A stretch of 64,000 bases of DNA, from NCBI GenBank assembly GCA_963752285.1, contig CAVVXN010000005.1, positions 1,312,001 to 1,376,000 of the forward strand, in the 5' to 3' direction. How positions within the stretch are numbered: position 1 is the stretch's first letter; every line of letters starts with the position of its first letter. This document shows positions 31,297 to 57,370 of this stretch, in pieces. This DNA is from an uncultured Planctomycetota bacterium (lineage in GTDB: Bacteria > Planctomycetota > PLA2 > JAEUHO01). The notes under the pieces are model-generated. The model did no database searches and was not told where the DNA came from. It saw only the letters and a program-made list of their open reading frames with translations. The position numbers were made by a program, and so were the translations under genes.

Positions 31297-32310
31297 TCAG
31301 ACGACCGACGCGACGCGGGCGCCTGGAGCGAGGCGCAGCGCGTCGCGCCGGGCGACGTCGGAAGGGAGGACGAACGCGGCGGTCGCCGCAGCGTCGGCGG
31401 CGAGGCACGTCGGCGCGACGATCGTCACACTGTGGAAGGCGGCCTGGCGGGGCGCCGCGGTGGCCGGGTCGAGGAGATGGTGGTAGCGGCGGCCGGCGTA
31501 CGTGAAGCCCCGCTCGTAGTCCCCCGAGGTCGCGACGGCCTCGTCCCGGACCTCGAGGCGCCCCACGAGGCCGTCCGGGTCGTTGGGGTCCTGGATGCCG
31601 ATGCACCAGGGATCGCCGTCCTCCGACCCGCCGATCGCGACGAGGTCCCCGCCCACGTTCACGAGGGCGCCCCGCGCACCACGGCGACGGATCGCGGCGG
31701 CGGCGCGGTCCACGCCGTAGCCCTTCGCGATGCCGCCGAGGTCGATCCGCGCGGCGCGGTCCGTGAGGCGGACGGCGGGCCGGCCGCGCCACGTGTCCAC
31801 GTCGAGCGCACGCCAGAGGCCGCGCCCCGCGAGGGGCTTCCAGGCCTCGGCGGGCGGCGGCGCGGCGCGGTGCTCCACGTCCCACGCCTCCGTCGCCTCG
31901 AGCAGACAGGGGTCGAACGCGCCCCGGCTCCCCTCGGCCCAGCGGATCGCCTCGCGCAGCACGAGGGCCGTCTCGTCGCCGACGAACACGGCCTCCCGCG
32001 TCGCTCCGAGGTTCGCGCGGCCCACGTCCGACCGGGGGTCGAACCTCGACATCGTGCTCTCGACGCGGCGAAGCGCCGCGATCGCGTCCTCGAGGGCGGC
32101 CTCGGCGACGTGCGGGTCGTCGTGCACGACGGCGAGGTCCGCGAGCGTGCCCATGATCGGGATCGTCCGACGCGCGAGCGGCCGGCCACGACGACGCAGG
32201 GCCACGGGAACCGAGAGCGCGACGAACGCGCCGACGCCGAGCGCCAGCACGTCGCGGCGACTCGGACCGCGCGCGGCGCACCCGGGGCGGGGGTCAGGAC
32301 TGGAGGTCAT
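31297..32310 (-). CDS. apbE: FAD:protein FMN transferase with twin-arginine signal
   Basis: SRRDVL Tat motif, MGT, IDLGGIAKGYGVD, ATSGDYER, HHLLDP, ADAAATA. Confidence 0.93.
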   Translation of the reverse strand: MTSSPDPRPGCAARGPSRRDVLALGVGAFVALSVPVALRRRGRPLARRTIPIMGTLADLAVVHDDPHVAEAALEDAIAALRRVESTMSRFDPRSDVGRANLGATREAVFVGDETALVLREAIRWAEGSRGAFDPCLLEATEAWDVEHRAAPPPAEAWKPLAGRGLWRALDVDTWRGRPAVRLTDRAARIDLGGIAKGYGVDRAAAAIRRRGARGALVNVGGDLVAIGGSEDGDPWCIGIQDPNDPDGLVGRLEVRDEAVATSGDYERGFTYAGRRYHHLLDPATAAPRQAAFHSVTIVAPTCLAADAAATAAFVLPSDVARRDALRLAPGARVASVV

Positions 32311-32494
32311 CGGTGGACTCCTCGGACGGGGCGGACGCGCGCGCGCAGCCGGCGCAGCCGCCGGAGCGGGCCTCCTCGCAGTCCCGGCGCGCGTCGCAGC
32401 CCGGCCCGTCGTCCGGCGACCCGAAGCGGTGCTGGATCCAGACGAAGCCTCCGAAGAGGGCGCCGGTCACGACGATGGCGACGAGCGGGCTCAC
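32294..32494 (-). CDS. Small single-TM Cys-rich protein (66 aa)
   Basis: GTG start overlaps rnfA stop (GTGA); stop overlaps apbE start; TM followed by C-x5-C-x7-C-x2-C. Confidence 0.7.
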   Translation of the reverse strand: MSPLVAIVVTGALFGGFVWIQHRFGSPDDGPGCDARRDCEEARSGGCAGCARASAPSEESTDDLQS

Positions 32495-33072
32495 GACGCC
32501 GTCCCCAGGCCCGCGAAGCCCATGAACGCGAGGGAGAGCGTGCCCGCGATGATCAGCGTGAGGGCCGTCCCCCGCGCGATCGAGGGGACGTCCGCGAGCT
32601 CGGTGGTCTCTCGGATCGACGCCATCAGGACGAGCGCGAGCGTCAGCCCGAGGCCGGCGCCGAGCGCGTAGAAGAGGCCCTGGACCAGGGTGTAGTCGTA
32701 CTTCGTCGTCTGCCAGAGCGCGAGGCCCAGGATCGCGCAGTTGGTCGTGATGAGGGGGAGGTAGATTCCGAGCTGGCGGAACAGGGTGGGGCTCAGCTTC
32801 TTGATCGCCATCTCGGTGATCTGTACGAGCGAGGCGATCACCACGATGAACGAGATGAGCCGGAGGTAGGGCGCGGCGCGGAGCACGGTGTTGTGCAGCG
32901 CCCAGGCGCACACCGAGGTCATCGTGAGCACGAAGATGTTCGCGAGCCCCATGCGCAGCGCCGTCGCGATGCGCGACGAGACGCCCATGAAGGGGCAGAG
33001 CCCCAGGAAGAGCATGAGGGTGAAGTTGTTCACCACCATGGCGGAGAGGAGGATCCAGAGGAGACCGCCCAT
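32491..33072 (-). CDS. rnfA: Rnf electron transport complex subunit A
   Basis: VNNFTLMLFLGLCPFMGVS, LGIYLPLITTNCAILG, LSLAFMGF. Confidence 0.95.
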   Translation of the reverse strand: MGGLLWILLSAMVVNNFTLMLFLGLCPFMGVSSRIATALRMGLANIFVLTMTSVCAWALHNTVLRAAPYLRLISFIVVIASLVQITEMAIKKLSPTLFRQLGIYLPLITTNCAILGLALWQTTKYDYTLVQGLFYALGAGLGLTLALVLMASIRETTELADVPSIARGTALTLIIAGTLSLAFMGFAGLGTAS

Positions 33073-33770
33073 CACGGAGCCCTCCCGTCGAGCGAGCCCG
33101 CGCCGAGCGCGGCCCGCACCGCCTGGGGCGCGTCGGCGTCCGCCGCGTCCGGCCCCTCCGCGGGTCCGCGGGCGCGCGCCCGCCGCCACGCCGCGAGACC
33201 GAGGAGGAGGAAGCCGAGCGTCAGGAAGCCGCCGGGCGGCAGCTTCATGATGACCCAGGGCTGGTAGCTCGCGCCGAAGAGCGAGACGCCGAGGAACGTG
33301 CCGTTCCCGAGGACCTCGCGGAACGTGCCCATCAGGAGGAGCGCGATCGTGAAGCCGAGGCCCGAGCCGATCGCGTCGAGCGCCGCGCGGCCGACCGGGT
33401 TCCGGGCCGCGAACGCCTCCTGTCGGCCGAGGATGATGCAGTTCACGACGATCAGCGAGATGAACGCGCCGAGCGCCTTGTGGATGTCGGGCACCGTGGC
33501 CTCGAGCCCCATGTCGGCCACCGTCACGAAGGTGGCGATGATCAGCACGTACGTCGAGATGCGGACCTCGTGGGGGATCCACCGCTTCAGGGACGACACG
33601 AGGACGCTCGACCCGAGCAGTACGAAGAAGGTCGCGATGGCCATGGCGAGGCTGTTCGCGACCGTGTTCGTCACGGCCAGCGTCGGGCACAGGCCGAGGA
33701 GCTGGACGAGAACCGGGTTCTCGCGCCAGATGCCCCTCACGAGGTCGGCGGAGGCCGGGCGGGCGGTCAT
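33072..33770 (-). CDS. rnfE: Rnf electron transport complex subunit E
   Basis: GIWRENPVLVQLLGLCPTLAVT, LIVVNCIILGRQEAFA, LPPGGF. Confidence 0.95.
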   Translation of the reverse strand: MTARPASADLVRGIWRENPVLVQLLGLCPTLAVTNTVANSLAMAIATFFVLLGSSVLVSSLKRWIPHEVRISTYVLIIATFVTVADMGLEATVPDIHKALGAFISLIVVNCIILGRQEAFAARNPVGRAALDAIGSGLGFTIALLLMGTFREVLGNGTFLGVSLFGASYQPWVIMKLPPGGFLTLGFLLLGLAAWRRARARGPAEGPDAADADAPQAVRAALGAGSLDGRAP

Positions 33771-34492
33771 CGCGGAACCTCCTTCCCGGGGCCCGGGGCG
33801 GTCGGCCCGGACGGCGACGCCGGGTCCGGCCCGCCGCCCGGGTGCGCCGCGAGCCACGACGAGAGCACGGGGTCGAGGCGCTCGAGCGCGCCCCGGACGA
33901 TCCCGACGACGGCCCGGGACGAGATCGTCGCGCCCGTGATCATGTCCACCGCGTGCGTGTCGCCGTTCGACTCGCCCTGCTTGACGCCGTGGATCGGGAA
34001 CTCCTTGCCCTCGAACTGCGCGGCGAAGTGCGGGTCCTTCTCGATCGAGTCGCCGAGGCCGGGCGTCTCCTTGCTCTCGAGCACCTTGAGCCCCCGGATC
34101 TTCTTCGTCGTCGGGTCGTACCCGACGATCAGCCGGATCTCGTCCGCGTACCCGTTGGCGCCGGCGACGATCGCGAACCCGACGGGCTTCCCGGCCGCGT
34201 CGAACCCGAGGTAGACGGGCTCGAGCGTCTTGGGGTCGGCGCCGGGCGGCGGCTCGGCCGAGAGGTCGGCCCCGCGCACGTAGAGCGTCGTGGAGCGCGC
34301 GGGCGCGCCGAGGACCTCGCCGATCGCGGCCTTCAGCATCTCGGCCTTGTGGGCCAGGATCGCGGGCTGCGTCGCCTGGTACACGAACACGAGGAGGCCG
34401 CCCGCGACCGCCCCCGCCAGCGCGAGCGTCGCGACGAAGCGCCAGCTCGGCGTCTCCGGGCGCACGGACGGGGCGGCGTCGCCGGGACTCAC
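33767..34492 (-). CDS. rnfG: Rnf electron transport complex subunit G
   Basis: N-terminal TM, GYADEI, ETPGLG, FMN site DMITGATISS. Confidence 0.93.
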   Translation of the reverse strand: MSPGDAAPSVRPETPSWRFVATLALAGAVAGGLLVFVYQATQPAILAHKAEMLKAAIGEVLGAPARSTTLYVRGADLSAEPPPGADPKTLEPVYLGFDAAGKPVGFAIVAGANGYADEIRLIVGYDPTTKKIRGLKVLESKETPGLGDSIEKDPHFAAQFEGKEFPIHGVKQGESNGDTHAVDMITGATISSRAVVGIVRGALERLDPVLSSWLAAHPGGGPDPASPSGPTAPGPGKEVPR

Positions 34493-35535
34493 GACAGGAT
34501 CCTCGCGGCGCGCGTCCCGAAGACGCGCGGCTGCGTGGCGCGGTTGATGAAGGGCACGAGCGCGTTCATGAGGAGGATCGAGTACTGCACCCCCTCCGGA
34601 AGCCCGCCCCACAGGCGGATCGTGACGACGAGGAACCCGATCCCCACCCCGAAGACGACGCAGCCGCGGTGCGTGACGGGCGACGTGACCATGTCGGTCG
34701 CCATGTAGACGGCGCCGAGCGCGAGCCCGCCGGAGAGGAGCATGAAGCCCGGGCCGGGGAAGCGGTCCGGACCGAGAAGGTGGAGGACCCCCGAGAAGAG
34801 GCCGACGGTGGCGAAGATCGCCACGGGGATGCGCCAGTTGAGCCGGTTTCGGAGCGCCAGGTAGAGGCCGCCGAGGAGGATGAGGATCGCCGAGGTCTCG
34901 CCGAGCGAACCGCCGGTCGTGCCGAGGAGGAGGTGCGCGAGGTCCGTCCCCTGGTGCTGGAACTTCATGAGGCCGAGGGGCGTCGCCGCCGTGGTGCCGT
35001 CCACGACGTGCGGCGCCATCAACGGCAGCGCGAGGTTGTCGCCGCGCAGCCGGAGCCAGTCGGAGATGCGCTCGAAGGAGAAGGCGGAGAACCGGCCCCC
35101 CGAGACGAGGTTCGCAGGCCACGTCGTCAGCGCGACGGGGAACGCGGCCTGGAGGAACGCGCGCCCGACCAGCGCGGGATTGAAGGGGTTCTGGCCGAGG
35201 CCCCCGAAGATCAGCTTGCCGAAGCCGATGCCGAACACGCCGCCCACGAACGCCATCCAGAGGGGGACCCCGGCGGGGAGCGTCAATCCGAGGAGCAGGC
35301 CCGTGATCACGGCGGAGCCGTCGCCGAGCGTGCCGCGCCGCCCGAACGCGCGCTCGGTCAGGAGCGCGCCGAGGGTGGCCGCGGCCAGGACGAGCACCGC
35401 GCTCGGCCCGAAGAACCAGATCGAGGCGAGGATCACCGGCACGAGGCTCAGGACCACGGACCACATGATCCGCGGCGTGCTCTCCGGCGAGCCGAGGTGG
35501 GGCGAGGCGGTGACGAGCCAGCGGGGCGATCTCAC
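34489..35535 (-). CDS. rnfD: Rnf electron transport complex subunit D
   Basis: SPH start, DGSAVITGLLL, FGGLGQNPFNPALVGR, FMN site DGTTAATPL, GSLGETS, YMATDMVTSP. Confidence 0.95.
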   Translation of the reverse strand: MRSPRWLVTASPHLGSPESTPRIMWSVVLSLVPVILASIWFFGPSAVLVLAAATLGALLTERAFGRRGTLGDGSAVITGLLLGLTLPAGVPLWMAFVGGVFGIGFGKLIFGGLGQNPFNPALVGRAFLQAAFPVALTTWPANLVSGGRFSAFSFERISDWLRLRGDNLALPLMAPHVVDGTTAATPLGLMKFQHQGTDLAHLLLGTTGGSLGETSAILILLGGLYLALRNRLNWRIPVAIFATVGLFSGVLHLLGPDRFPGPGFMLLSGGLALGAVYMATDMVTSPVTHRGCVVFGVGIGFLVVTIRLWGGLPEGVQYSILLMNALVPFINRATQPRVFGTRAARILS

Positions 35536-36941
35536 GACGGCGCTCCCGGGGCGACCGGCGCGGACGCCGGGGCCGGCGCGGCGCCGCCCGACGCCGCGGG
35601 CGCCGGGGCCTTCGCCTGTCGCACGCGCAGCGCCGTGCGCGAGGCCTGGAAGAGCTGGCTCAGCGGGATGTGGGAGGGGCACACGTACGAGCAGCAGCCG
35701 CAGAGCATGCAGTCGGACAGGTGGTGGCCCGCCATCTCGTCCTCGCGGCCCGCGAGGGCGAGCTGGCCGAGGATCTGCGGGTTCAGGAACACGGGGCACG
35801 CGTCGAGGCAGTGTCCGCACCGGATGCACGGGTACGTCTCGGGGCGGCGGACCTCGCCCTCCACGAGGACGACGATGCCCGTGGTGCCCTTCGTCACGGG
35901 CGCGTCGAGGTTCGCGATCGAGGCGCCCATCATGGGCCCGCCGTTCACGACCTCGCGCGCGTCCTCGGTGAGCCCGCCGCTCGCGTCGAGGAGGTCGCGG
36001 ATCTTCGTACCGACCGGCACGATCCAGTTCCCGGGCCGACGGACGCCGTGGCCCGTGACCGTCACGATGCGCTCGATCAGGGGCAGCCCCGTCTCGAAGA
36101 CCTCCGCGATCGTGGCCACCGACGCGACGTTCTGGACGATCACGCCCACGTCCATGGGAAGGCGGCCCGTCGGCACGCGGCGCCGGAGGAGGGCGTCGAT
36201 GAGCATCTTCTCGGCGCCCTGCGGGTATTTCACGGTGAGGCCCACGATCTCGACGTCGAGGTCGGTCGGCCGCGTGGCCTTCATGCGTTCGAGCGCGTCG
36301 GGCTTGTTCTTCTCGATCCCCACGATCGCGCGCGGCACGCCGAGACAGCGCATCATCAGGCGGATGCCGAGGTGCACCCGCTCGGGAAAGTCCACCATCG
36401 TCCGGTGGTCGGTCGTGAGGTACGGCTCGCACTCGCAGCCGTTGATCACCAGCGTGTCGATCGACTTCCCGTCCGGGGGCGACAGCTTCACGTGGGTCGG
36501 GAACGCGGCGCCGCCGAGGCCCACCACCCCCGCGTGGCGGACCGCTTCGACGGTCTCCTCGCGCGTCAGGCGCTCCCAGGCCGGGACCAGGCGCGGCCTC
36601 GGCGCCTGCGCGGACCAGGGCTCGACCTCGATCCGGACCGAAGTCTCCATGGAGCCGTCCGGGTGCGGCCAGAGTCCGACCGACACGACGCGCCCGGACG
36701 CCGACGCGTGGATCGGCACGGAGACCCAGCCGTCGGCCTCGGCCACGACGTCGCCGCGCTCCACGCGGTCGCCCTCCCGGACGATCGGCCGCGCGGGCCG
36801 GCCCGCGTGCTGTCGCACGGGGAGGACGACCTCCGCCGGGAAGGGCATGCGACGCACAGGCAGGTGCGCCGTCAGCTCCTTCGCCTCGGGCGGGTGGACG
36901 CCGTGCCGGAAGCGGGGCTTCGTGTGGTTCGGCTTCGCCAT
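35532..36941 (-). CDS. rnfC: Rnf electron transport complex subunit C
   Basis: GVHPPEAK, GLGGAAFPTHVKL, NGCECEPYLTTD, KYPQGAEK, GGPMMG, CIRCGHCLDACP and CMLCGCCSYVCP. Confidence 0.96.
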   Translation of the reverse strand: MAKPNHTKPRFRHGVHPPEAKELTAHLPVRRMPFPAEVVLPVRQHAGRPARPIVREGDRVERGDVVAEADGWVSVPIHASASGRVVSVGLWPHPDGSMETSVRIEVEPWSAQAPRPRLVPAWERLTREETVEAVRHAGVVGLGGAAFPTHVKLSPPDGKSIDTLVINGCECEPYLTTDHRTMVDFPERVHLGIRLMMRCLGVPRAIVGIEKNKPDALERMKATRPTDLDVEIVGLTVKYPQGAEKMLIDALLRRRVPTGRLPMDVGVIVQNVASVATIAEVFETGLPLIERIVTVTGHGVRRPGNWIVPVGTKIRDLLDASGGLTEDAREVVNGGPMMGASIANLDAPVTKGTTGIVVLVEGEVRRPETYPCIRCGHCLDACPVFLNPQILGQLALAGREDEMAGHHLSDCMLCGCCSYVCPSHIPLSQLFQASRTALRVRQAKAPAPAASGGAAPAPASAPVAPGAPS

Positions 36942-36946
36942 GGTGC

Positions 36947-39900
36947 TCAGCGGAAGCGCTCCGCGCGCTTCACCCACTTGTCCAGGTCCCTCTCCTTCGG
37001 GTCGAGCGGGGTCCCCGGGTGGATGATCTTGACGGGGCACTTCTCCGCAGCGACCACGAGGTCGCGATAGGGCCCGCCGCGCGGGTCCTTCACGACGGCC
37101 TGCTTCTTGTCGTTGTAGGCGAAGAGGCGCCGGTTCAAGTTGACGCACTCGTGGCAGGTCGTGCAGCGCGCGGACTCGATCCACGGCTCCACGTCGAGCG
37201 TCTCGTCGGCGGGCGCCTCCGCGGTGGACGTGGCCGTCGCCGCGGGCGCCGACGGCGAGACGGCCGTCCCGCTGGCCGCCGCCACGCCGCCCGGTGCCGC
37301 GCCGGCCGGAGCCGCAGCGGCGCCGGGGGCCGCGAACAGGCCGTCGGTACCCGCCGCCACGGGCTCGAGCCCGGCCGCCTCGACGCGCGCCAGGATGTCG
37401 GCCAGCGTCGCGCCGGCGTCGCCCTGACGCAGGAGCCCCTCGGCCATGCGCCGTGCGACCGCGAGCGGGATCCGCGCCCTCAGGTCGGCGATCTTCGCCT
37501 CGTACTCCGCCTTGAGCGCCTGGAGCTTCTCCTCGTACGCCGCGGCGACCTCCCGCTCTACGAGGTCGTGGACGGGCGGCGACGCCTCGGTGCCGGCGAG
37601 CTGACGCAGGTGCCGCCACGCGTCGATCCGGTCGTCGGCCAGGTGCACGATGGACGACGAGACGAGGAGGCGCGCGAGGTGGTTCTCGGCGTCCAGCGTG
37701 TAGATGAACGGGATGGCGTCCCCACGCTCGGCGGCCGGCATCGCCACGTAGTCCGCGAACGGGACCACGTCGTCGTCGGGCCTCGCCGGCTTGAACTGCT
37801 TCTGGAAGCGGCCCTCGGTCGCGGCCCAGTCGGCGATCGTGAGCGGCAGCGTCAGGGTCTTCGCCTGGCCCTGCTCGTCCTCGTACGAGAGCTCGTACGT
37901 CGGCCAGAGGTCTTCGATCGCGGGGTTGCCGTCGAGGCTCATGCGCTCCGCGATCGAGGTCCCGGCGTCGGGGTCGTACACGAGGAGCGGGAACGCGCGG
38001 CTCTCGAGCGCGAGCTTCGCGGCGCGCATCGACGAGTAGTCGGCGAGACCGTGCTCGGGCGGGCACGGGGCGTGGAGGACGAAGAGCGCCGGGCGTCGCG
38101 CCTTCAGCCCCCTGATCACGCCGCCGAGCAGATGGCTCGGCAGCGCCTGCGAGGACTGCAGCACGTAGGCCTGGCGGTGGGCGATGCCGACGAGCGAGAG
38201 CTCCTTCCGCATCTCCTCCTTGCCCTGGTGCGCCTTCCCGAACGCCGCCATGTCGGAGACCTGGCCCGTGAACGAGCCCGTGGACGCCTGGCCGCCGGTG
38301 TTGGAGTACACCTGCGTGTCGAGCACGACGACGCGGACGGGCTTGTCGGACGCGAGCAGGCGCGACAGGTTCTGGAAGCCGATGTCGAGCATCGCGCCGT
38401 CGCCCCCCACCGCGATGATGGGCGGGCAGAGGAGGAACTCCTCCTCGGAAAAGTCGTGCCAGTCGAGGCGCGCGAAGACGGCTTCGTCGCGCTGGGCGTC
38501 GTACTCGTCCTTCGCGAGGAGATCCGCGCGGCGGACCGCGACGAAGTTGTCGGTCATCTTCCGCATGTGCCCTTCGAAGATGCCGATGGCGATCGAGGGG
38601 GCGTCCTGGAAGAGGTGGTTCACCCAGGGGAAGGGATACGGGTTGTACGGGTACGTGCTGCCCCACACGGACGAGCAACCGGTCGAGTTCGTGAACCCGA
38701 GCGACGCCCGACCCTTGCCGCTCGGCCCCTCGACGTAGCGCCACCGGAGGTCCTTCACCTCGCGGATCGACCGCACGATCCGCTCGATCTCGCGCCGGCG
38801 CTCCGGGTCGAGCGCGACCTCGGCTCCGACGCCGCCCTCGACCATCCGGTCGAGGTCGGCGTCCGAGGAGAGGAGCATCCGTGCCTTCTGGTCGAGCGTC
38901 TCCACGATCTCGTCGAGGCGCTTCACGAACGCGTGCACCCGAGGCCGCATCACCGCGTTCACGGCGGCGACCACGAGGTGGATCCCCGTCTTCTCGCCGC
39001 AGCCCATGCAGGCGCCGTCGCCGCCCACCATGGACATGTAGTTGTCCTTCTTGAGCAGGAGCGACGAGAGGATCCCGATACCCTCGTCCAGGCTCGCGAC
39101 GTCCACGAACCGGTCGTCGGTGTCCGGCAGGTGCCGCCAGAGCGACCACCGCCGGCGCAGGTCCTCGACGACCTGGTCCGTCTGCTTGATCGTGACGAGC
39201 GCGCCCGTGGGGCACACGTTCACGCAGATGTTGCAGCCCTTGCAGGTCTCGGGGTTCACGGTGACCGAGAGGAGGCCGCCCGACCCCGGCTCCGCCGACT
39301 CCGGCACGTCGAAGAACGGGGCCGTCTTCGCCAGCGGGAAGTCCTGCAGCTCGGCCGCCACCGCCTGGAACTCCTGGTCCAGGGCGTGGCGCCGCTCGGG
39401 GTCGAGGTCGAGCTTCGCCGCGACGGTCTCGTAGCTCTGCGTCAGCACCTCGGAGAAGGAGGCAAACGGCCCGCTCTTCATCACGCGGCGCGCCTCGCGG
39501 CCCAGGTGCTTCACGATGGGCTTCAGGCGGTCGTACGTGCGGCCGTTCGAGATCGTGCGGATCGCGGCGTCGAGGACGTCCTCGATGCCGCTCACGACGC
39601 CGGGAATGGCCGAGTCGGGGCACTGCGTCCAGCAGGCCGCGCAGCCCGTGCACTTCGACGCGACGAACTCCGGCACCTCGAAGCGCATGTCGGTCATGTC
39701 GCGGATCGACGACGTCGCGGCGGGGATCGCGGAGATCGCGGCGAACGGGTCGGCGATCCCGTCGGCGCCCGACTTGTACAGGTGGCAGACCTGCTCCCAG
39801 AAGCGGCCGGGGTGCGCGATGCCGTCCTGGGCCGCCGCGTCGCCGAGGATCTCGGGCATGACGGGAACGTGCCCGCTCTCCGGCCCGTCGTCGGAGAGGG

Positions 39901-42004
39901 TCGAGAGGTCGAGCGTCTTCGCCTCCGAGAAGCCGCGCCGGACGACCTCGAGGTTCTCCTCCACCACGCGCCCGCCGAGGTGACCGAACTTCTTCTTCGT
40001 CTGCGCGAGGATGCCCGCGAAGAGACGTTCCTCGTCGAGGTCGTGCTCCTTGACGAGCGAGGAGGCGCGGAAGAAGGCGCCCATGAAGGCCGCGCCCTGC
40101 ATGCGGTAACGCAGGTCCGGGTTCGTCGCGACCTCGGACGCGATCTGGAACGCGTCGAGCGACCAGACGCGGATCTCCCGCTCGCGGATCTGGCGCTGCG
40201 CGGTCCGCGGGAGCGTGTTCCAGAGCTCCTGCGGCGCGAGACTGCTCTGGATCACGAACACGCCGCCCTTCGCGAGGCCGGCGAGCGGGTCGGAGTGCCG
40301 GAACACGTTCGGGTCCGGCGAGAGGACCACGTCCACGTGCTTGAGCTCGCAGTTCGTCCGCACCGGCTCGCTCGCGAGCGTGGCGTAGAACGTGGTCGGC
40401 TGGCCCTTCTTCTCGGAGCCGTACTTCGGGTTCGCCTGGATCTGGAGGCCCAGCAGGTCCGCCGCGGTCACGGCGAGGTTCTTGCCCATCGTGATCGCGC
40501 CCCACCCGCCGACCGAGTGGATGCGGATCGAAGTGGACCCCTTCGGCAGGAGGTTCACGTCCGCACCCGGGTCGAGCGCGAGCCCCTCGAGGAGGGGATA
40601 GCTCTCGAGCAGGCGCTCCTGCCAGATCTGGAGCTTGGGGAGCCGCGTACCCTTCCGGACGAAGTCGATCCCGAGGTAGAAGAGCCGGCGGTTCGCGCCG
40701 CCCTCGAGCATGTTCTCCACGGCCGCGACCAGGTGGTTCGGCTGCAGGTCCCGGCTCCCGAGCCCGTACACGCCCGCGTAGAACTCGGGGACCTCCTCGG
40801 GCCGGCACGCCGTGACGCCCAGGTGCGGGGTCTTTGCGCGCGCGCGCCCGTTCTCGACCGCCTTGCCCATCGCCGCGCGGATCTCGCGAAGCAGCGGCTG
40901 GTCCGCGGCGAGCGGCTGGTCGGTGCGCTCGAGCACCACCACCCCCTTCTTGCCGCGGAGCAGCCGGGTCACCTGGTCCGAGGGGAAGGGACGGAACATC
41001 GCCATCTGCACCACGCCGACCTTCAGCTTCTTCGCGGCGCGCAGATGGTCGGCCACCGCCTCGGCGTTCTTCACGACGGAGCCCTGTCCGACGATGAGCC
41101 AGTCGGCGTCCTCCGCGCGATACCCCATCACGCGGGCGTAGGCGCGGCCCGTGAGCGCGGCGTACTCCTCGAACGCGCGGTCGGCGAGCTCGGCGAGGTG
41201 GTCGAAGTAGAACGGCCGCTGCGCGGCGACGCCCTGGGCGTACGCGTCCTGGTTCTGGACCACGCCGAGCATCGCGGGGTAGTCCACGTCGTACAGCTCC
41301 GGCACACGACGGCGGCGTTCGCCGAACACGAGCCGCTGGGCGGGCGTGGGCGACGGGATCTGGTCCGCCGGGTCGCCGAGGTACTCGTCCACCAGCGCGC
41401 GCTCGGGCAGGAGGACCGACTCGATCACGTGGCTCGTGAGGAACCCGTCCTGGGCGCAGATCCCCGGGTTCAGCGAGAGCTCCGCGATGCGGTGTGCGAT
41501 CAGGTCGAAGTCGGCGGCCTGCTGCACGTCCTTCGCGAAGATCTGGAAGAACCCCGTGTCGTCCACCGCGTGGTAGTCGTCGTGACCCGCGTGCACGTTG
41601 AGCGCGTGCTTGGTCATCGCGCGGCACGCGACGTTGAGCACGTACGTGAGCCGCTTGCCGACCGCCGCGTACAGCGACTCGTGCATGTACGCGATGCCCT
41701 GCCCGCTCGAGAAGTTCGTCGCGCGGAGCCCCGTCAGGCTCATGCCGGCGGTCACGGCGGCCGCGGCGTGCTCGCCCTCGGGCTCGAAGAAGATGAGCTG
41801 ACGACCGCGCACGTTGGGCGTGCCCGCCGCCATCGCCGCCGCGAAGCCCTCGCCCATCTGCGTGGAGGGTGTGATGGGATACGCGCCGGCGGCGTCCGAC
41901 GCGGCCGTCTCCATCGCGACGACGGCGCCGCTCCCGTCCGTGGCGGTCGGGACCCCCGGGTACTTCGGGGCGGCCGCGTTCGCGTCCTTCGGGCTGGTCT
42001 TCAT
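36947..42004 (-). CDS. nifJ: Large single-chain pyruvate:ferredoxin oxidoreductase with C-terminal ferredoxin
   Basis: YPITPST, gamma domain GGWGAIT..YGSEKKG, CTGCAACWTQCP and CKGCNICVNVCP, ACMGCGE, GCSSVWG, TPP motif GGDGAMLDIG..YSNTGGQ, extra CTTCHEC..KCP domain. Confidence 0.9.
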   Translation of the reverse strand: MKTSPKDANAAAPKYPGVPTATDGSGAVVAMETAASDAAGAYPITPSTQMGEGFAAAMAAGTPNVRGRQLIFFEPEGEHAAAAVTAGMSLTGLRATNFSSGQGIAYMHESLYAAVGKRLTYVLNVACRAMTKHALNVHAGHDDYHAVDDTGFFQIFAKDVQQAADFDLIAHRIAELSLNPGICAQDGFLTSHVIESVLLPERALVDEYLGDPADQIPSPTPAQRLVFGERRRRVPELYDVDYPAMLGVVQNQDAYAQGVAAQRPFYFDHLAELADRAFEEYAALTGRAYARVMGYRAEDADWLIVGQGSVVKNAEAVADHLRAAKKLKVGVVQMAMFRPFPSDQVTRLLRGKKGVVVLERTDQPLAADQPLLREIRAAMGKAVENGRARAKTPHLGVTACRPEEVPEFYAGVYGLGSRDLQPNHLVAAVENMLEGGANRRLFYLGIDFVRKGTRLPKLQIWQERLLESYPLLEGLALDPGADVNLLPKGSTSIRIHSVGGWGAITMGKNLAVTAADLLGLQIQANPKYGSEKKGQPTTFYATLASEPVRTNCELKHVDVVLSPDPNVFRHSDPLAGLAKGGVFVIQSSLAPQELWNTLPRTAQRQIREREIRVWSLDAFQIASEVATNPDLRYRMQGAAFMGAFFRASSLVKEHDLDEERLFAGILAQTKKKFGHLGGRVVEENLEVVRRGFSEAKTLDLSTLSDDGPESGHVPVMPEILGDAAAQDGIAHPGRFWEQVCHLYKSGADGIADPFAAISAIPAATSSIRDMTDMRFEVPEFVASKCTGCAACWTQCPDSAIPGVVSGIEDVLDAAIRTISNGRTYDRLKPIVKHLGREARRVMKSGPFASFSEVLTQSYETVAAKLDLDPERRHALDQEFQAVAAELQDFPLAKTAPFFDVPESAEPGSGGLLSVTVNPETCKGCNICVNVCPTGALVTIKQTDQVVEDLRRRWSLWRHLPDTDDRFVDVASLDEGIGILSSLLLKKDNYMSMVGGDGACMGCGEKTGIHLVVAAVNAVMRPRVHAFVKRLDEIVETLDQKARMLLSSDADLDRMVEGGVGAEVALDPERRREIERIVRSIREVKDLRWRYVEGPSGKGRASLGFTNSTGCSSVWGSTYPYNPYPFPWVNHLFQDAPSIAIGIFEGHMRKMTDNFVAVRRADLLAKDEYDAQRDEAVFARLDWHDFSEEEFLLCPPIIAVGGDGAMLDIGFQNLSRLLASDKPVRVVVLDTQVYSNTGGQASTGSFTGQVSDMAAFGKAHQGKEEMRKELSLVGIAHRQAYVLQSSQALPSHLLGGVIRGLKARRPALFVLHAPCPPEHGLADYSSMRAAKLALESRAFPLLVYDPDAGTSIAERMSLDGNPAIEDLWPTYELSYEDEQGQAKTLTLPLTIADWAATEGRFQKQFKPARPDDDVVPFADYVAMPAAERGDAIPFIYTLDAENHLARLLVSSSIVHLADDRIDAWRHLRQLAGTEASPPVHDLVEREVAAAYEEKLQALKAEYEAKIADLRARIPLAVARRMAEGLLRQGDAGATLADILARVEAAGLEPVAAGTDGLFAAPGAAAAPAGAAPGGVAAASGTAVSPSAPAATATSTAEAPADETLDVEPWIESARCTTCHECVNLNRRLFAYNDKKQAVVKDPRGGPYRDLVVAAEKCPVKIIHPGTPLDPKERDLDKWVKRAERFR

Positions 42005-42852
42005 CCGTTGACACTCCTCGCGAGCTCGCGCGGAGGCGTGAGCTGCGCGTGCTCGACCCAGAGGATGGCTCCCGTCGGGCACCGTGTGGCGGCCTCGGGC
42101 CGGGCCGCGTCGTTCTTCGTGTAGTCGATCACCGCGAGACCCCGGCGGATCTCGATCAGGCCGGGCGCGGCGTCGTCTACGCAGCGGCCGCATCCCGTGC
42201 AGGCCACCTGGCACTGCGCCTGTGCCTCGTCGCCCTCGAGGAGGCTCCGGCACTGGACGATCAGGTGCTGTTCCACCGGCATGATGGAGAACAAGTCCTT
42301 CGGGCACGCGTCCACGCAGTCGCCGCACGCCGTGCAGCGCTCGGGCGTCACGACCGGCAGCCCGACGGGGTTCATGTGGATCGCGTCGAACGTGCAGGCG
42401 CGGGCGCAGTCGGCCAGGCCGAGGCACCCCCACGAGCACGCCTTCCCGCCCCCCGCGACCGCGGCCGCGGCGCGGCAGGTCAGGAGGCCCGTGTAGTCGG
42501 CGCGCTGCACGGCGACGTCGCACCCGCCCGCGCAGAGCAGCCGGGCGACGCGCTTCACGGCCTCGCCCGCCTCGACGCCCAGGTAGTCGGCGACGGCCTG
42601 GATCCCCTCGGGGTTCATGTTCGTGCACTTCGCGGGCTGGGCCGCGCCGCCGACGAGCCCCTCCGCGAACGAGCGGCAGCCGGCGAAGCCGCAGGCCCCG
42701 CAGTTCGTCCCGGGGAGCAGGTCGGTCACCGCGTCGATCCGCGGGTCCTCCCAGACCCTCAGACGGCGGTTCGCCAGCGCGATGAGCGAGCCGAACACGA
42801 GGCCGACGCCGCCCAGCACGAGCACCGAGTCGAGGATCTGGGTGGGATCCAC
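42001..42852 (-). CDS. rnfB: Rnf electron transport complex subunit B
   Basis: N-terminal TM, DPRIDAV..LPGTNCGACGFAGC, several 4Fe-4S motifs; SD GGAGG before GTG. Confidence 0.93.
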   Translation of the reverse strand: MDPTQILDSVLVLGGVGLVFGSLIALANRRLRVWEDPRIDAVTDLLPGTNCGACGFAGCRSFAEGLVGGAAQPAKCTNMNPEGIQAVADYLGVEAGEAVKRVARLLCAGGCDVAVQRADYTGLLTCRAAAAVAGGGKACSWGCLGLADCARACTFDAIHMNPVGLPVVTPERCTACGDCVDACPKDLFSIMPVEQHLIVQCRSLLEGDEAQAQCQVACTGCGRCVDDAAPGLIEIRRGLAVIDYTKNDAARPEAATRCPTGAILWVEHAQLTPPRELARSVNG

Positions 42853-42860
42853 GTCGCCTC

Positions 42861-43865
42861 CTACGAGCCCGAAACCGGTCCGGCCTGCTGCAGGAGCCAC
42901 GCCGCGAGGCGCCCCGCGGGGTCGGCCGGCGGTCCTGAGGCGCCCGACGCGGGCGTGGCCGCGGTCTGCGCCTCGAGGAGACGGGACAGGTGTCGCATCG
43001 TCTCGGCCTGCTGGAACACGCTCCACGCGCCGACCGGACGCGCGGGCGCCGTCTCGGGGAGGTGGACCGCGCCGAGCGCGTTCGATGCGCCGCCCTCGAC
43101 CGCGGGGTCGTGGACGAAGCGCGCCGCACCCTCCGGCACGACGGCCGCGACGCCGGGGCCCTTCCACGCGCCGAGACCCGCGAGGCCCGCGAGCGACGTG
43201 ACCTGGGCGACGTACGTGCCCGGCGTCACGAGCCGGGCGAGCGGCGCGACCGGGCACGCGCCGCGCACGAGGAGCACGAGCTTCATCTCTCCGTCGAGGT
43301 AGCCGGCCAGACAGTCGGCGAGGAGGTCGCCTCCGTCCACGTCCACGACGAGCGGCGGGGCGATCCGGCGCTCGCCGCGGTTCCAGCGGAGGAAGGGAAA
43401 GGGGCGCGCGAGGTCCGTCGCGCCGGCCGCGTCCGGCCGTCCCGCGCGCGCGAGCTCGGCGGCGCGGGCGGCCGCGAAGGCGCGGCCCACCTCGCCGAGG
43501 CGCGCCTCGACGACGTGGTGGAGGCTCGCGCCGGAAGGCACCTCCACGCGGAACGCCGCGTCGCCCCGTTCGAGGAGGTCGGTCAGGACGCGGAACGCCT
43601 GCTCGACGATCGCCATCGCGCCGGGCTCGACGACGGCACGCTCCCGGCGCGCGACGGCCTCGAACAGGTCGCCGCGGATGCGCCCGAGGGCGAACGCCCC
43701 GAGGTCCGCCGCCCCGCCGCCCCGCGGGTCGGTCGCGTCGCCCTGCGCGTCCGTCGCCATGTCGCGGAGACGCTCGATCGTGGCCGCCAGCGCCGATCGG
43801 AACGCGCCGAGCGGTCGGCTCAGGGTCTCGAAGACGTTCGGCTCGTTCGGCTTCTCAGACGGCAT
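42861..43865 (-). CDS. Hypothetical protein resembling a degenerate PFOR TPP-binding (beta) domain
   Basis: Coupled between korB and rnfB; several segments align by eye with the beta region of the adjacent PFOR but lack the GDG..N motif and the cluster cysteines. Confidence 0.75.
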   Translation of the reverse strand: MPSEKPNEPNVFETLSRPLGAFRSALAATIERLRDMATDAQGDATDPRGGGAADLGAFALGRIRGDLFEAVARRERAVVEPGAMAIVEQAFRVLTDLLERGDAAFRVEVPSGASLHHVVEARLGEVGRAFAAARAAELARAGRPDAAGATDLARPFPFLRWNRGERRIAPPLVVDVDGGDLLADCLAGYLDGEMKLVLLVRGACPVAPLARLVTPGTYVAQVTSLAGLAGLGAWKGPGVAAVVPEGAARFVHDPAVEGGASNALGAVHLPETAPARPVGAWSVFQQAETMRHLSRLLEAQTAATPASGASGPPADPAGRLAAWLLQQAGPVSGS

Positions 43866-44814
43866 GGCGGTCGAGCTCCCCGTTCAGGATCGAGATGCGC
43901 TCCTCCGCGGTCAGCACGGGGAGGCGCCGGATCTCGTCGTAGCGCGCCCGGGTCGGGTCGCAGAAGAACAGGCCCAGGCGCACCCGCCCCGCGTCCTCCG
44001 CGAGCTCGCGGGCCCGCGAGAGGTCGTGCGGGTCGTGGCGAACCTGGTTCTTGTAGACCGACTCGGTGTCGTCGTCGCGGATCCCGTCCGCGTGGACGAG
44101 GATCTCGGTGTGGTCGGGGTTCTGCGCCGCGTCGCGGTAGATCCCCGGCGTCCACACGGGACAGCGCTGGAGGATCCGCACGAACGCGAAGCCCGGGTGC
44201 TTCCACGCGGCCTCGAGCGTCGCCGCGAGGTGACCGGGCGCCCAGTCCGCCGTCTGCGCGACGAAGGAGGCGTTCGTCACGCCGAGGGTCGCCGTGAGCG
44301 GGTTCAGCGCGGGCAGGTACGAGCCGTGGGGCTGCGTGAGGCTCGGGTGACCCTGCGGCGTCGTCGGGGACGTCTGGTTCTTGGTGAGACCGTAGATGTT
44401 GTTGTCGAGGAGCAGCGCGACGAGGTTCACGTTGTACCGGACCGCGTGGATCCAGTGGGCCGCGCCGATCGAGCAGCAGTCGCCGTCGCCCATCACCGTG
44501 AACACGTCCAGGTCGGGGCGCGCGAGCTTGACGCCGATCGAGACGGGCAGGGCGCGGCCGTGGATCCCGTGGAAGCCGTACGTCTTCAGATAGTGGGGGA
44601 AGCGGCTCGAGCACCCGATCCCCGAGACGAAGACCGTCCGCTCCGGCTCGAGCTGCTTCGCCGCGAGCAGGCGCAGCGTCGCGCCGAGGATCGCGTGGTC
44701 GCCGCATCCCGGGCACCAGCGCGCCACCGGACCTTCGTAGTCCCCGACCTCCCACGTGCGGTCGTCCTCGACGACCGCCGCGCAGCCCGCGAGGGCACAG
44801 CTCGGCTCGATCAC
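43855..44814 (-). CDS. korB: 2-oxoacid:ferredoxin oxidoreductase beta subunit
   Basis: WCPGCGD, SGIGCSSRFP, HGRALP, GDGD..NNIYGLTKNQTSPT, QRCP. Confidence 0.93.
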   Translation of the reverse strand: MIEPSCALAGCAAVVEDDRTWEVGDYEGPVARWCPGCGDHAILGATLRLLAAKQLEPERTVFVSGIGCSSRFPHYLKTYGFHGIHGRALPVSIGVKLARPDLDVFTVMGDGDCCSIGAAHWIHAVRYNVNLVALLLDNNIYGLTKNQTSPTTPQGHPSLTQPHGSYLPALNPLTATLGVTNASFVAQTADWAPGHLAATLEAAWKHPGFAFVRILQRCPVWTPGIYRDAAQNPDHTEILVHADGIRDDDTESVYKNQVRHDPHDLSRARELAEDAGRVRLGLFFCDPTRARYDEIRRLPVLTAEERISILNGELDRHAV

Positions 44815-46736
44815 GCGTCACCTCCCTTCGCGGTCTTCCCGAAGCGTTCGCGGACGGCCCGGAGGATCTGGCCCGGCCGCAGCGGCTCGCCCGGCACGCG
44901 GGTCCAGCAGTCGGCGTCCACGAGCAGCTGCCCGCGCAGGAGCCAGGCGAGCTGGCCCCGGCGACGGTTCTCGTCGTTCACGTGCGGGGCGTCCGGCTCG
45001 TCGCTGTAGTTGATCTCGACGGTCAGGACGCGGCGGTACCGCCGGCAGATGTCCTTCACCCCGGGCGGGAGGGGCGAGAGGAACGTGAGGTGCATCGACG
45101 CGACGGAGAGGCCCTCCGCCCGCGCGCGCTCGGCCGCCTCCTCGATCGCGCCGCGCGTGCTCCCCCACCCGACGATCAGCAGGTCGCCCTCGCTCGGGCC
45201 GACGACGGGCGGCGGCTCCAGCATCGACTGCAGCGTGGCGAGCTTCCGGCTCCGCATCGCGTGGGCGCGCTGGTTCACCGCGGGGTCGTACGTGACCTTC
45301 GATCCCTCGTCGTGGCAGAGCCCCGTCGCCGTGAACATCCCGCCCGGCTGGCCCGGCACGAACCGACGCGAGAGCCCGGTCGCGGGGTCCCACTGGTACG
45401 GCTTCGCACCGGGGGGCAGCGCCGACTGGTCCGGGGGCCGCGCCTGCCAGCGCTCGTCCGGCTCGGGCCGCGCGAACGGCTGCACGCCCGTGGCGAGGTT
45501 CGCGTCGGAGAGGACCATGACGACGCATCGGAACGTCTCCGCGATGCGCCGCGCGGTCACCATGCAGTGGAAGCACTCCTCGATGGTCGAGGGCGCGAGC
45601 ACCACCTTCGGCGCGTCGCCGGGCTGGCCGAACATCGCGGCGAGCAGGTCCGACTGCTCCACCTTCGTGGGGAGCCCCGTGCTCGGGCCGCCGCGCTGCA
45701 CGTCCACCAGGACGAGGGGGGTCTCGGTGATGACGGCCAGGCCGAGGAACTCGGTCTTGAGCGCGAGGCCCGGGCCCGACGTGACCGTGAACGCGACCTT
45801 GCCCGCGTACGAGGCGCCGATCGCGACCCCGATCGCGGAGATCTCGTCCTCCGCCTGGTGCAGCACGCCGCCCGTGCGGTCGAACACCTCGCCGAGGTAG
45901 TGCGACACCGAGGTCGCCGGCGTGATCGGGTACATCGCGCAGAGCTCGAGCCCCGCGGCGATGGCGCCCATCCCGATCGCCGTGTTCCCGTTCATCACGA
46001 CCATCGGCTTCTCGATCGGTCGTGACGGCACATCGACCCGGAACTCGATGTGCTCCTCCGCCCACTGCATGCCCCGCTCGAGGAGCTGTACGTTCTTCTC
46101 GTACACCGCGGGGGACTTCTTGCGGAACTGGAACGCGATCTGTTCCTTCACGCGCTGGGGGTCGCGGCCGTAGATCGTGGTCAGCAGCCCGAGCGCGAAC
46201 ATGTTCTTGCCGCGTCGCGGGTTGTCCACCACCTCGAGCGACTCGGCCTCCATCGGCACCGGCACGAAGCGGTACCGCCGCGTGCCGAGCTCCTCCATGG
46301 CCGCGGTCCAGGCCTTGACGACGTCCGGGTCGGGGTGCTCGCTCCACATCGACTCGATGAGGATCACCGCGTCCTCGGCGAGCGCGCCGAGGCGGTGTCG
46401 CGAGAGGAGGACCTGCTCGTTGAACGCGACGACGAGCTGCGCCTCGTCGCCCCAGTTCGTCACGGGGTCCGTCCCGAGCCGGATCCGGACGCCGGACGCG
46501 CTCCCCGGGCTGCGCGGCGGGGGCTGGATCTCGGCCGGGATGATCTCGACCGTCCAGACGCCGTTCCCCATCTTCGCGGAGACGGCCCCGAAGGTCTGAC
46601 CGCACTTCTGCGCGCCCTCCCCGGAGTCCGACACCACCTCCACGGTGTGCTCGGGCACGGTGATCCTCCGCGGCGTGGTCGCCTGGGGTGCCGGCTCGGC
46701 GTGGTTCGCGGTCGCGGAGGGCTGCTCTCGAGTCAT
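44811..46736 (-). CDS. korA: 2-oxoacid:ferredoxin oxidoreductase alpha subunit (gamma-alpha fusion)
   Basis: SDSGEGAQ, YPITPAT, QAEDEI, TSGPGLALK, QRGGPSTGLPTK, GWGST. Confidence 0.93.
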   Translation of the reverse strand: MTREQPSATANHAEPAPQATTPRRITVPEHTVEVVSDSGEGAQKCGQTFGAVSAKMGNGVWTVEIIPAEIQPPPRSPGSASGVRIRLGTDPVTNWGDEAQLVVAFNEQVLLSRHRLGALAEDAVILIESMWSEHPDPDVVKAWTAAMEELGTRRYRFVPVPMEAESLEVVDNPRRGKNMFALGLLTTIYGRDPQRVKEQIAFQFRKKSPAVYEKNVQLLERGMQWAEEHIEFRVDVPSRPIEKPMVVMNGNTAIGMGAIAAGLELCAMYPITPATSVSHYLGEVFDRTGGVLHQAEDEISAIGVAIGASYAGKVAFTVTSGPGLALKTEFLGLAVITETPLVLVDVQRGGPSTGLPTKVEQSDLLAAMFGQPGDAPKVVLAPSTIEECFHCMVTARRIAETFRCVVMVLSDANLATGVQPFARPEPDERWQARPPDQSALPPGAKPYQWDPATGLSRRFVPGQPGGMFTATGLCHDEGSKVTYDPAVNQRAHAMRSRKLATLQSMLEPPPVVGPSEGDLLIVGWGSTRGAIEEAAERARAEGLSVASMHLTFLSPLPPGVKDICRRYRRVLTVEINYSDEPDAPHVNDENRRRGQLAWLLRGQLLVDADCWTRVPGEPLRPGQILRAVRERFGKTAKGGDA

Positions 46737-47059: not shown

Positions 47060-47653
47060 TCATCCGCGATGGCGGCGTCCGAGGCGCGCGAGGAGCGCGC
47101 GCCAACCGTGCCCGCGCCCTCGCTCGGTCTCCTCGCGCCGGCGCTCGCTCGGCGTGGCGACGGTCACCACCTTGCTCTCGCGCACGAGCACCTCGACGGC
47201 GGTCGCCTTGTCGGATACAGGACCGGCGCGGTCCGACAAGGCGCGCACGCGCGGACACGGCGTCACGACGCCCGATTCCGCCCACGCGCGGGCCTGGTCG
47301 AGCGCACGCTCGACGACCTCGGCGACGTGCTCGGCCTCGAACGGCTTCAGCAGGTAGTCGAAGGCGCCCGCGTAGATGGCGGCCTTCACGCTCTCGCGGT
47401 CGCTGTGGCTGCTGACGATCAGGAACGGCACCCGCTCGTGGATGCGGGGCAGCAGCGCCTGCAAGAGGTCGAAGCCGTTCATCGTGGGCATCATCACGTC
47501 GGAGACGATCAGGTCGAAGGTCCCCTCCTCGTAGAGGTCCAGGGCCTCGGCGCCGTCGCGAGCGAGGACGGAGTGGTGCCCCTGCCGCGCCAGGAGGCCG
47601 GCGAGGGCCTCGCGGACCGCGGGTTCGTCGTCTACGAGCAGGACGTGGGCCAT
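47060..47653 (-). CDS. Response regulator receiver protein with basic C-terminal tail
   Basis: VLLVDDE, IVSDVMMP, VSSH, YLLKPF; SD AGGAGG; no recognisable HTH. Confidence 0.9.
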   Translation of the reverse strand: MAHVLLVDDEPAVREALAGLLARQGHHSVLARDGAEALDLYEEGTFDLIVSDVMMPTMNGFDLLQALLPRIHERVPFLIVSSHSDRESVKAAIYAGAFDYLLKPFEAEHVAEVVERALDQARAWAESGVVTPCPRVRALSDRAGPVSDKATAVEVLVRESKVVTVATPSERRREETERGRGHGWRALLARLGRRHRG

Positions 47654-47734
47654 GGAGTCCCTCCTGGGGGGATCCGAGTTCGCGTGGAGAGCATCGGACG
47701 GACTCGGGCCGGGGGACGGGCCCCCGACCCGAGC

Positions 47735-48250
47735 TCAGGAGGCGTCCGGGGCCTCGATGATGAAAGCGCCGGTCGTCTCGTCGCGGCGGGGCAGGAGCTC
47801 CTCCGCCAGGCGGCGTTCGCCCTCGGCCATCGCCTCGACGCGCTGCGCCCGCACGTTGCCGCCGTACAGCAGCTCGTTCAGCACGCGGCGCATCTCCTCG
47901 TTGTCCCAGGGCTTCGTGAAGAAGCGGTGGATGCGGCCCTCGTTGATCGCGCTGATCACGAGGTTCAGGTCGGCCTGGGCCGTCAGCAGGATCGTGGTGA
48001 CCCGCGGATGGCGGGCGCGCACGTCCTTGATGAGGTCCAGACCGTGGGTGCCCGGCATGTAGTGGTCGCAGATGATCAGGTCCACCTCGGGGTGGCGTTC
48101 GAGGATGCCCCAGGCCTCGGCGGCGTCGTACGCGTGCAGGAGCTTAAACGGCTCCCGTCGGAACGTTCGCTGCAACGCCCGGTGAATGGTCTCCTCGTCG
48201 TCCACGATCAGCACCGTCTTCGGGTCGTCGTGGCTCGGGTCGTGGTTCAT
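47735..48250 (-). CDS. Response regulator receiver protein with short C-terminal extension
   Basis: VLIVDDE, IICDHYMP, LLTAQ, FFTKPW; SD GGAG. Confidence 0.9.
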   Translation of the reverse strand: MNHDPSHDDPKTVLIVDDEETIHRALQRTFRREPFKLLHAYDAAEAWGILERHPEVDLIICDHYMPGTHGLDLIKDVRARHPRVTTILLTAQADLNLVISAINEGRIHRFFTKPWDNEEMRRVLNELLYGGNVRAQRVEAMAEGERRLAEELLPRRDETTGAFIIEAPDAS

Positions 48251-55948: not shown

Positions 55949-55965
55949 GCACGGCCGCATCGGGT

Positions 55966-55994
55966 GACGACTTGAGAACCGTTCTCACGTCGTC
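55966..55994. promoter_or_regulatory. Fur-family-like 7-1-7 palindrome upstream of asnA
   Basis: TGAGAAC-C-GTTCTCA at 55973-55987, extended by GACGAC/GTCGTC arms. Confidence 0.5.
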
Positions 55995-57321: not shown

Positions 57322-57370
57322 CGTCGTCACCTGGGGCCCGCGACCCGGTCGCGGGCCTCCAGGCGCCCCC

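Follow-up and report, generated by a model that had tools for sequence, protein, structure and literature searches.

The stretch of DNA analysed here, 64,000 nucleotides from an uncultured Planctomycetota bacterium (hereafter the window), raises the question of what a 334-residue protein is doing between the genes of a 2-oxoacid:acceptor oxidoreductase and those of an Rnf complex. The protein, called X throughout, is encoded at window positions 42861 to 43865 on the minus strand, in an operon that runs on a single strand in the order korA, korB, X, rnfB, a PFOR of 1685 residues, rnfCDGEA, apbE and a CBS-domain gene. An earlier note, made from the sequence alone, had read X as a catalytically dead paralog of the thiamine-binding domain of the neighbouring PFOR, acting as a pseudoenzyme subunit of an oxidoreductase-Rnf module. 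The answer that we favour is that X is probably a non-catalytic adaptor, a cut-down PFOR domain VI that would be bound to KorA through the tip of a helical hairpin and would tie KorAB to a tethered ferredoxin and to Rnf. The features on which the argument draws are the following.

42861..43865, minus strand: X, 334 residues, in all probability a dead derivative of PFOR domain VI
43551..43829, minus strand: X residues 13-105, helical hairpin homologous to an insertion of about 90 residues in the long-PFOR clade
43674..43712, minus strand: hairpin-tip motif, consensus ELGxFAAGRID with G56 invariant, predicted KorA-binding site
42957..43550, minus strand: alpha/beta core of X, residues 106-303, a thiamine-diphosphate-binding (PP) domain in reduced form, cofactor loops gone
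43326..43337, minus strand: GDG remnant D177-G178-x-D180 of X, from sequence alignment
42885..42920, minus strand: conserved C-terminal helix LAAWLL of X, preceded by a variable linker
43855..43865, minus strand: overlap of 11 nt between the X start codon and the korB stop codon, likely translational coupling
44811..46736, minus strand: korA, alpha subunit of the 2-oxoacid:acceptor oxidoreductase, catalytic motifs intact, predicted partner of X
43855..44814, minus strand: korB, encoding the beta subunit with its GDG and cluster cysteines in place
42001..42852, minus strand: rnfB
36947..42004, minus strand: PFOR, 1685 residues, catalytic motifs intact, with hairpin insertion, coiled tail and C-terminal ferredoxin
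37589..39049, minus strand: PFOR domain VI, residues 986-1472, homologous to X
36950..37192, minus strand: C-terminal single-cluster ferredoxin of the PFOR on a low-complexity linker
31297..36944, minus strand: rnfC, rnfD, rnfG, rnfE, rnfA and apbE, start positions approximate

The 3' end of the PFOR gene (window 36950-37588, minus strand) encodes a coiled tail, then a linker rich in Ala and Pro and an additional ferredoxin with a single cluster, an arrangement kept in 46 aligned loci.

The kinship between X and the PFOR was proposed from short matching segments, and all 12 of these exist and lie in the correct order, those of the PFOR spanning window positions 37970 to 38941. Pairwise BLASTP of X against the PFOR and against KorB returns nothing significant (best E 0.32 and 0.057), so that the match lies below single-sequence detection. 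Comparison of one family with the other gives a significant match: the X profile, built from 249 sequences, aligns with that of PFOR domain VI (49 or 48 sequences, taken from related loci) over 152 columns with E 3e-5 and a probability of 73.6/71.7, and its score of 46 compares with 22.4 for the reversed profile and 28.3 for the best of 40 block shuffles. Segments 2 to 6 fall in the register of the earlier note in this alignment; segment 1 lies outside its significant local part, and its register is recovered through a relative of X, the family Y described below. The X profile reaches a probability of at most 6.5 against the other five PFOR regions, KorA and KorB, and KorB as the parent of X was discarded at a profile probability of 0.9-2%. 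While the direct X-PFOR match reaches 73% only, the indirect route is stronger, with X matching the Y profile at 97.6% (E 4.6e-12, 269 columns including the hairpin; 92.6% when X enters as a single sequence) and PFOR domain VI matching Y at 100% (E 4.7e-43). A relative of 497 residues matches X at 96% and PFOR domain VI at 99.9%.

Blind searches converge on the same domain. The PFOR is the top non-self open reading frame for the X profile in its own genome (E 0.074, weak alone), a 1700-residue PFOR is the only protein matched among 8000 longer candidates (E 0.88, weak alone), and in blind searches of two further genomes, G073 and G140, the weak X matches fall within the domain VI matches. Together with the structural comparison given below, the profiles and blind matches support the reading of X as a catalytically dead paralog of domain VI, from which it is almost certainly derived. 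X itself is single-copy within its genome and belongs to a genuine family: 8000 candidates yielded 227 homologs, and a search over 1.84 billion gave 618 representatives at E<=0.001. Searches with X found no Pfam family at E<=0.1, PF02775 included, no PorB or KorB model in NCBIfam, where only HisB appeared at E 0.008 and far below the cut-off, no informative match in a PDB sequence search and no usable match in the ESM Atlas. HisB, ribonucleotide reductase, ALIX and ATP synthase c were set aside as identities of X because the matches were too weak.

The catalytic equipment of domain VI has been lost from X by deletion. Neither NTGGQ nor its KorB equivalent occurs in any of the 249 X sequences (0/249), and the Asn-bearing loop that follows the GDG helix, YSNTGGQ in PFOR and YGLTKxQ in KorB, corresponds to a deletion of about 32 residues in the X alignment; more generally, the loops bearing the thiamine and 4Fe-4S sites appear in the alignments as deletions. 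A CxxC motif is present in 1/249 sequences, no cysteine column exceeds 31%, and 66 of the 249 sequences have no cysteine whatever. The earlier note had the GDG...NTGGQ motif and the 4Fe-4S cysteines missing; this stands for NTGGQ and the cysteines but not entirely for GDG, as the corresponding place in X reads V-D-G-x-D, with D177 in 58% of the 249 sequences and G178 in 97%, GDG itself being found there in none. Other positions are tightly held: W161, E165, R166, Q221, F250, H252 and P254 are 97-100% conserved in the 249 sequences, and the core displays conserved surface helices (L186, D191, G192, L209, R211, P215). The neighbouring PFOR and KorAB keep their catalytic motifs, both in the window and in most loci. 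X therefore shares descent and core fold with the active OFOR beta subunit and PFOR domain VI (PorB, KorB; Pfam TPP_enzyme_C; PDB 6cin, 1b0p, 9bt4), yet differs from them in lacking the NTGGQ loop and cluster cysteines, in retaining a DG remnant only, in adding the hairpin of the long-PFOR clade, and in matching no beta-subunit family of Pfam or NCBIfam. It would work as a scaffold within an OFOR and descends from domain VI, but stands outside the active beta-subunit family.

The predicted structure of X (pLDDT 89.4) begins at the N terminus with a helical hairpin, continues into an alpha/beta core and ends in a short helix at the C terminus. Foldseek with this model, a comparison that the earlier note had proposed, places PFOR at all of the first 11 ranks, but with E-values that all exceed 0.001, the best being 2.7e-3. 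In a VIA search the whole model was swamped by generic helical hairpins, PFOR being the sole row to cover nearly the whole of it, and for this reason the core (residues 105-300) was folded alone, giving a pLDDT of 91.9. Its best match is the Moorella PFOR (6cin_A, residues 830-1170; rmsd 6.1, 164/196 residues aligned) at Z 7.2, a value within the ambiguous range of the search tool, which becomes convincing through the ranking and the profile results: 6cin_A is the only chain at Z>=5 among 48,161, and ranks 2 to 30 are thiamine-diphosphate enzymes. The Foldseek ranks obtained with the core agree, again at E>0.001. As modelled, the core of X has the thiamine-diphosphate PP-domain fold. The hairpin corresponds to the insertion of about 90 residues found in the long-PFOR clade, which is absent from the Moorella and Desulfovibrio PFORs.

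X is not an isolated case. In several phyla, dead PFOR copies of about 1400, 830, 500 and 334 residues are encoded right behind the korB of a single KorAB clade, and X is the shortest member of this graded family. The best populated of the longer forms, Y, was first met in genome G140 as a protein of 813 residues encoded after korB and beyond two IS elements (two transposase-like open reading frames lie between korB and Y at L097:5179-7616, by inspection). It combines a dead domain VI with a tail and a C-terminal ferredoxin. Y homologs number 239 among 7999 candidates, and of 119 aligned Y proteins none (0/119) has the tested catalytic motifs and 118 carry the ferredoxin. Longer forms at the same place have 1264-1418 residues, with PFOR domain II detectable in two of three, and shorter forms have about 500 residues and no ferredoxin. 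One of the longest, a dead copy of 1418 residues after korB in G667 (L194:5042-9298), has two C-terminal ferredoxins. Compared with Y, at about 830 residues, X is without the extra N-terminal region, the tail and the ferredoxin.

A FastTree phylogeny of 36 sampled sequences and 262 columns separates X, the 500-residue forms and Y from active and dead full-length PFORs with a support of 0.96, the X branch being very long at identities of 16-19%, and profile scores favour Y (X-Y 99.9 vs X-PFOR domain VI 46). X does not look like a recent copy of the neighbouring PFOR, and would rather belong with an older group, the dead copies that follow korB. It may have arisen by stepwise reduction along this shrinking series. 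Homologs of full-length PFOR that have themselves lost YPITP, the cluster cysteines and NTGGQ lie between rnfB and rnfC in G140 (L097:11327-15532), and the same type occurs in L102, L110, L136, L140, L141, L183, L186-L191, L193 and L195-L198. These dead full-length PFORs mostly keep the domain V ferredoxin motifs and form a separate clade in the tree; they are likely a second pseudoenzyme, retained as an electron wire.

The question of what X binds was approached by predicting a complex of KorA (246-633) and KorB (22-319) with X (14-326) as the partner. The three-chain prediction, one of the comparisons suggested by the earlier note, passed with a score of 0.61 against 0.00 for the best of 3 controls, and the score falls to zero when KorA is replaced. 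A score of 0.61 is reached by 116/157 solved complexes and 2/215 mismatched pairs, a calibration that is only roughly valid here, as this run, unlike those behind it, used three chains and custom alignments. The runs agree in at least 85% of contacts with a partner pLDDT of at least 73. On X the contacts lie at residues 20-35 and 53-75, with the motif of the invariant G56 at their centre and residues 53-68 sitting on KorA; they involve KorA residues 382-401, 424-439, 453-457, 501-507 and 551-557, together with a small C-terminal patch of KorB (299-305). The earlier suggestion that X pairs with the KorB beta domain is not what the model gives: the hairpin tip sits on KorA and on the small KorB patch, with no beta-beta pairing. 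The interface of X is more conserved than the remaining hairpin (0.62 vs 0.40), whereas that of KorA is less conserved than the rest of KorA (identity 0.50 vs 0.73 over 69 matches), and the LAAWLL helix makes no confident contact. The modelled KorA-KorB pair looks like those of solved structures; for the contact of the hairpin tip the searches gave no such counterpart, which makes it less likely that the pass reflects memorised structures. On this modelling we consider it quite probable that X binds KorAB.

The genomic setting is strongly conserved. The best 80 of 135 X loci were examined, mostly from Gemmatimonadota but also from Rokubacteria, Planctomycetota, Acidobacteriota and others, and where the contig leaves room X is preceded by korB in 78/78 and korA in 68/69, and followed by rnfB in 78/78, PFOR in 68/69 and rnfC in 45/47. 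The 11-base overlap of the X start with the korB stop is in frame in 76/78 loci, the remaining two showing an identical overlap but a match that lies in a different frame. Broken X operons occur in long contigs, one with no PFOR or rnfC after a partial rnfB (L009), one with no korA (L032) and one with no rnfC (L074). This synteny and the passed complex prediction lend support to a pseudoenzyme subunit of an oxidoreductase-Rnf module.

Within the phylum of the window this KorB clade (membership at E<1e-125, the next match being at 1e-79) is present in 13 of 251 genomes. In every one of these the gene adjoining korB is X (9 genomes) or Y (4 genomes, in one of which a contig end truncates it). 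Two other phylum samples contain the clade in 15/201 and 21/201 genomes, and these 36 korB loci have an intact relative after korB in 32 cases, fragments in one, which is L201, and none in one, with two unreadable in the flank covered; the locus with none is L192 (G429:C1), where korAB of the clade is followed by unrelated genes with no X or Y within 14 kb. A fixed operon order cannot single out the partner of X, but variant operons can. Among 20 loci extended to about 19 kb, 12 read korAB-Y-rnfB-dead PFOR-rnfC, four are korAB-Y with no rnfB or PFOR, two have a 500-residue form (one of them with intact PFOR and Rnf), one has no relative and one is fragmented. Three genomes with korAB-Y (G293, G440, G460), searched whole as incomplete assemblies, gave neither an operon-type PFOR nor an RnfD above the cut-off; in G667 an RnfD/NqrB is present and an operon-type PFOR absent, and in G636 an intact PFOR and Rnf are on a separate contig. 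The remaining PFOR matches in these five whole genomes were classed as ordinary solely on their length and identity. In L134, the transcription of korA-korB-Y runs away from rnfB-PFOR-rnfC. Y genes are also found without korAB upstream in IS-rich metagenome contigs (e.g., L103, L109, L119, L132), and korAB, rnf and X are absent from the regions examined around distant long PFORs (G015, G045, G148 and the second copy in G117). One locus, L142 (G212), has a gene resembling NAD(P)H:ferredoxin oxidoreductases (Fer4_20 and Pyr_redox_2; 17865-19583) upstream of korA-korB-Y with no rnf following, and by eye L094 has a gene in a similar position; the gene of L142 may replace Rnf as the electron sink.

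The whereabouts of the ferredoxin suggest what the adaptor would be for. In the 12 long korAB-Y-rnfB regions the PFOR is dead and has no tail ferredoxin, while X and the 500-residue forms, from which the ferredoxin has been lost, accompany an intact, ferredoxin-tailed PFOR; L134 has a ferredoxin on Y and on PFOR alike. That a ferredoxin is carried by either Y or PFOR across most operon types points to electron delivery. Y would clamp KorA by its hairpin and hold its C-terminal ferredoxin on a flexible linker, delivering it to KorAB, which has no ferredoxin domain of its own. X would keep the clamp, its predicted hairpin tip docking on KorA, while its free core or LAAWLL helix may recruit the PFOR or RnfB, which would keep KorAB close to RnfB and to the tail ferredoxin of the PFOR. 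That X bridges KorAB to the PFOR ferredoxin and Rnf in this way we rate at slightly better than an even bet. Electrons in this genome would then flow from 2-oxoacid oxidation through Rnf to NAD+, with the energy stored as an ion gradient. No SucA match over the cut-off was found in the genome (89% complete), which fits an oxidative role for an OFOR without telling which paralog is meant; ATP citrate lyase likewise gave no match, with control genomes equally silent.

The nearest competitor is a partnership of X mainly with the PFOR, domain VI against domain VI and as the earlier note proposed, or with RnfB, which would make the KorA contact subordinate or mistaken. An operon-type PFOR is present in 11/11 relatives with X and in 9/9 of the phylum sample, and over 24 complete loci the distances of X track those of PFOR (r 0.86) and RnfB (0.82) better than KorA and KorB (0.77 each), the partial correlation with KorB being about zero, although the pairs are non-independent and the test is weak. 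The core also keeps its conserved surface helices, and the dimer interface of OFORs is built from domains I, II and VI according to the parts of the published account covered here (PMC5020499). Against this, relatives of X keep to korAB where the PFOR lies on the opposite strand, lies elsewhere or escaped detection, a PFOR of 54% identity at L093 stands without X or korAB, and the KorA contact passed its controls. We regard this alternative as unlikely in its exclusive form, and it is compatible with the adaptor if X has two binding faces. A search for fusions of X to a partner found none among the longer proteins, itself a weak test.

Less probable again is a role for KorAB-bound X in regulation, in shielding from oxygen or in assembly, without any part in routing electrons. 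Domain VII of the Desulfovibrio PFOR provides a precedent for a protective add-on (described in the parts of PMC13768988 that were covered), X has no redox cofactor motif, and the predicted KorA site (382-401, 424-439, 501-507, 551-557) need not lie on the electron path; the ferredoxin in 118/119 Y relatives, and on Y or PFOR across most operon types, argues the other way. If the old fold had acquired a new activity, catalytic or ligand-binding, this might explain the seven residues of X that are 97-100% conserved, but most of them align with conserved structural positions of the PFOR/Y fold (F, E, PP, Q, YDP), and the cofactor loops were deleted rather than remodelled, so that we think such a gain very improbable. 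Hardly credible is a decaying remnant retained only through the korB overlap: X is the shortest of a shrinking series and diverges at roughly double the rate of the genes next to it (mean distance 0.82 vs 0.33-0.40), but it has 618 representatives at E<=0.001, near-constant length and invariant motifs at both ends, the fold is confident and the gene is found in several phyla.

The adaptor that we prefer may belong to a larger design, which we put forward tentatively and at somewhat under even confidence. KorAB, X or Y, RnfB, the long PFOR and Rnf would constitute a single 2-oxoacid:NAD+ oxidoreductase assembly attached to the membrane, some of whose parts are pseudoenzymes. Dead PFOR copies would be its docking arms and the tethers of its ferredoxins, the full-length PFOR would in many lineages be a dead iron-sulfur wire, and the "PFOR" reported beside korAB in tubeworm symbionts would be a non-catalytic KorAB subunit.

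OFORs with one, two, four and five subunits are known (PMC13768988, parts covered), and the two-subunit enzymes have no domain V and use an external ferredoxin (PMC5020499, parts covered). KorA and KorB of the operon are of the same type as the two-subunit KorAB/OGOR enzymes (Sulfolobus StOFOR, 5b47/5b48; Magnetococcus, 6n2n), with motifs intact, but this clade nearly always has a third gene after korB, X or Y, whose product is a predicted KorA binder. Epsilon, a subunit in five-subunit PFOR/OGOR of Aquifex and Hydrogenobacter, is likewise an extra OFOR subunit, and its role is not known; as described in the parts of the review covered, it matches none of the seven PFOR domains, which sets it apart from X with its match to domain VI (PMC13768988). 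No subunit made from a dead PFOR domain appears in the parts of that PFOR review that were covered, nor such a dead-PFOR subunit in those of an Rnf review (PMC12174285), and a literature search whose scope left subscription journals mostly outside found no description of X or of a dead OFOR subunit.

Y is also encoded by the symbionts of Riftia, Ridgeia and Solemya (EGV52902.1, USF87609.1, OOZ39417.1), whose proteins are homologous to X over 269 columns and like X lack the catalytic motifs. In the parts covered of work on tubeworm symbionts, PFOR and Rnf genes are clustered with TCA genes and korAB, and the PFOR is treated as active (PMC6315080), while a "PFOR-like" gene has been found down-regulated together with korAB (PMC11636981, parts covered). 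From what these sources give, we infer that both genes are Y. Database names for Y include "ferredoxin", "pyruvate decarboxylase" and "putative pyruvate flavodoxin/ferredoxin oxidoreductase", and as Y and the dead full-length PFORs are annotated as ferredoxin, pyruvate decarboxylase or PFOR, these misnamed proteins can inflate pyruvate-synthase calls in metabolic maps of symbionts and MAGs. If real, X would be an unrecognised subunit of a central energy pathway, and would explain the wiring to Rnf of a two-subunit KorAB that has no ferredoxin domain; it would also represent an enzyme whittled stepwise to an adaptor, with the intermediate steps surviving in genomes.

Beyond the operon, the window holds a cluster upstream of korA (47060-51649, minus strand) with two response-regulator-like open reading frames, a histidine kinase and an open reading frame of 685 residues with no Pfam match; this signalling cluster may control the korA-X operon. 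Further on (51757-54207, minus strand) is an open reading frame of 816 residues with no Pfam match at 1e-8, in which one can make out by eye a first half resembling HNH, a short repeat of GEV and a second half with a radical-SAM-like CxxxxCxxC; it is perhaps two genes read through. On the plus strand, at 55900-58813, asnA adjoins a glutamine-synthetase-like gene.
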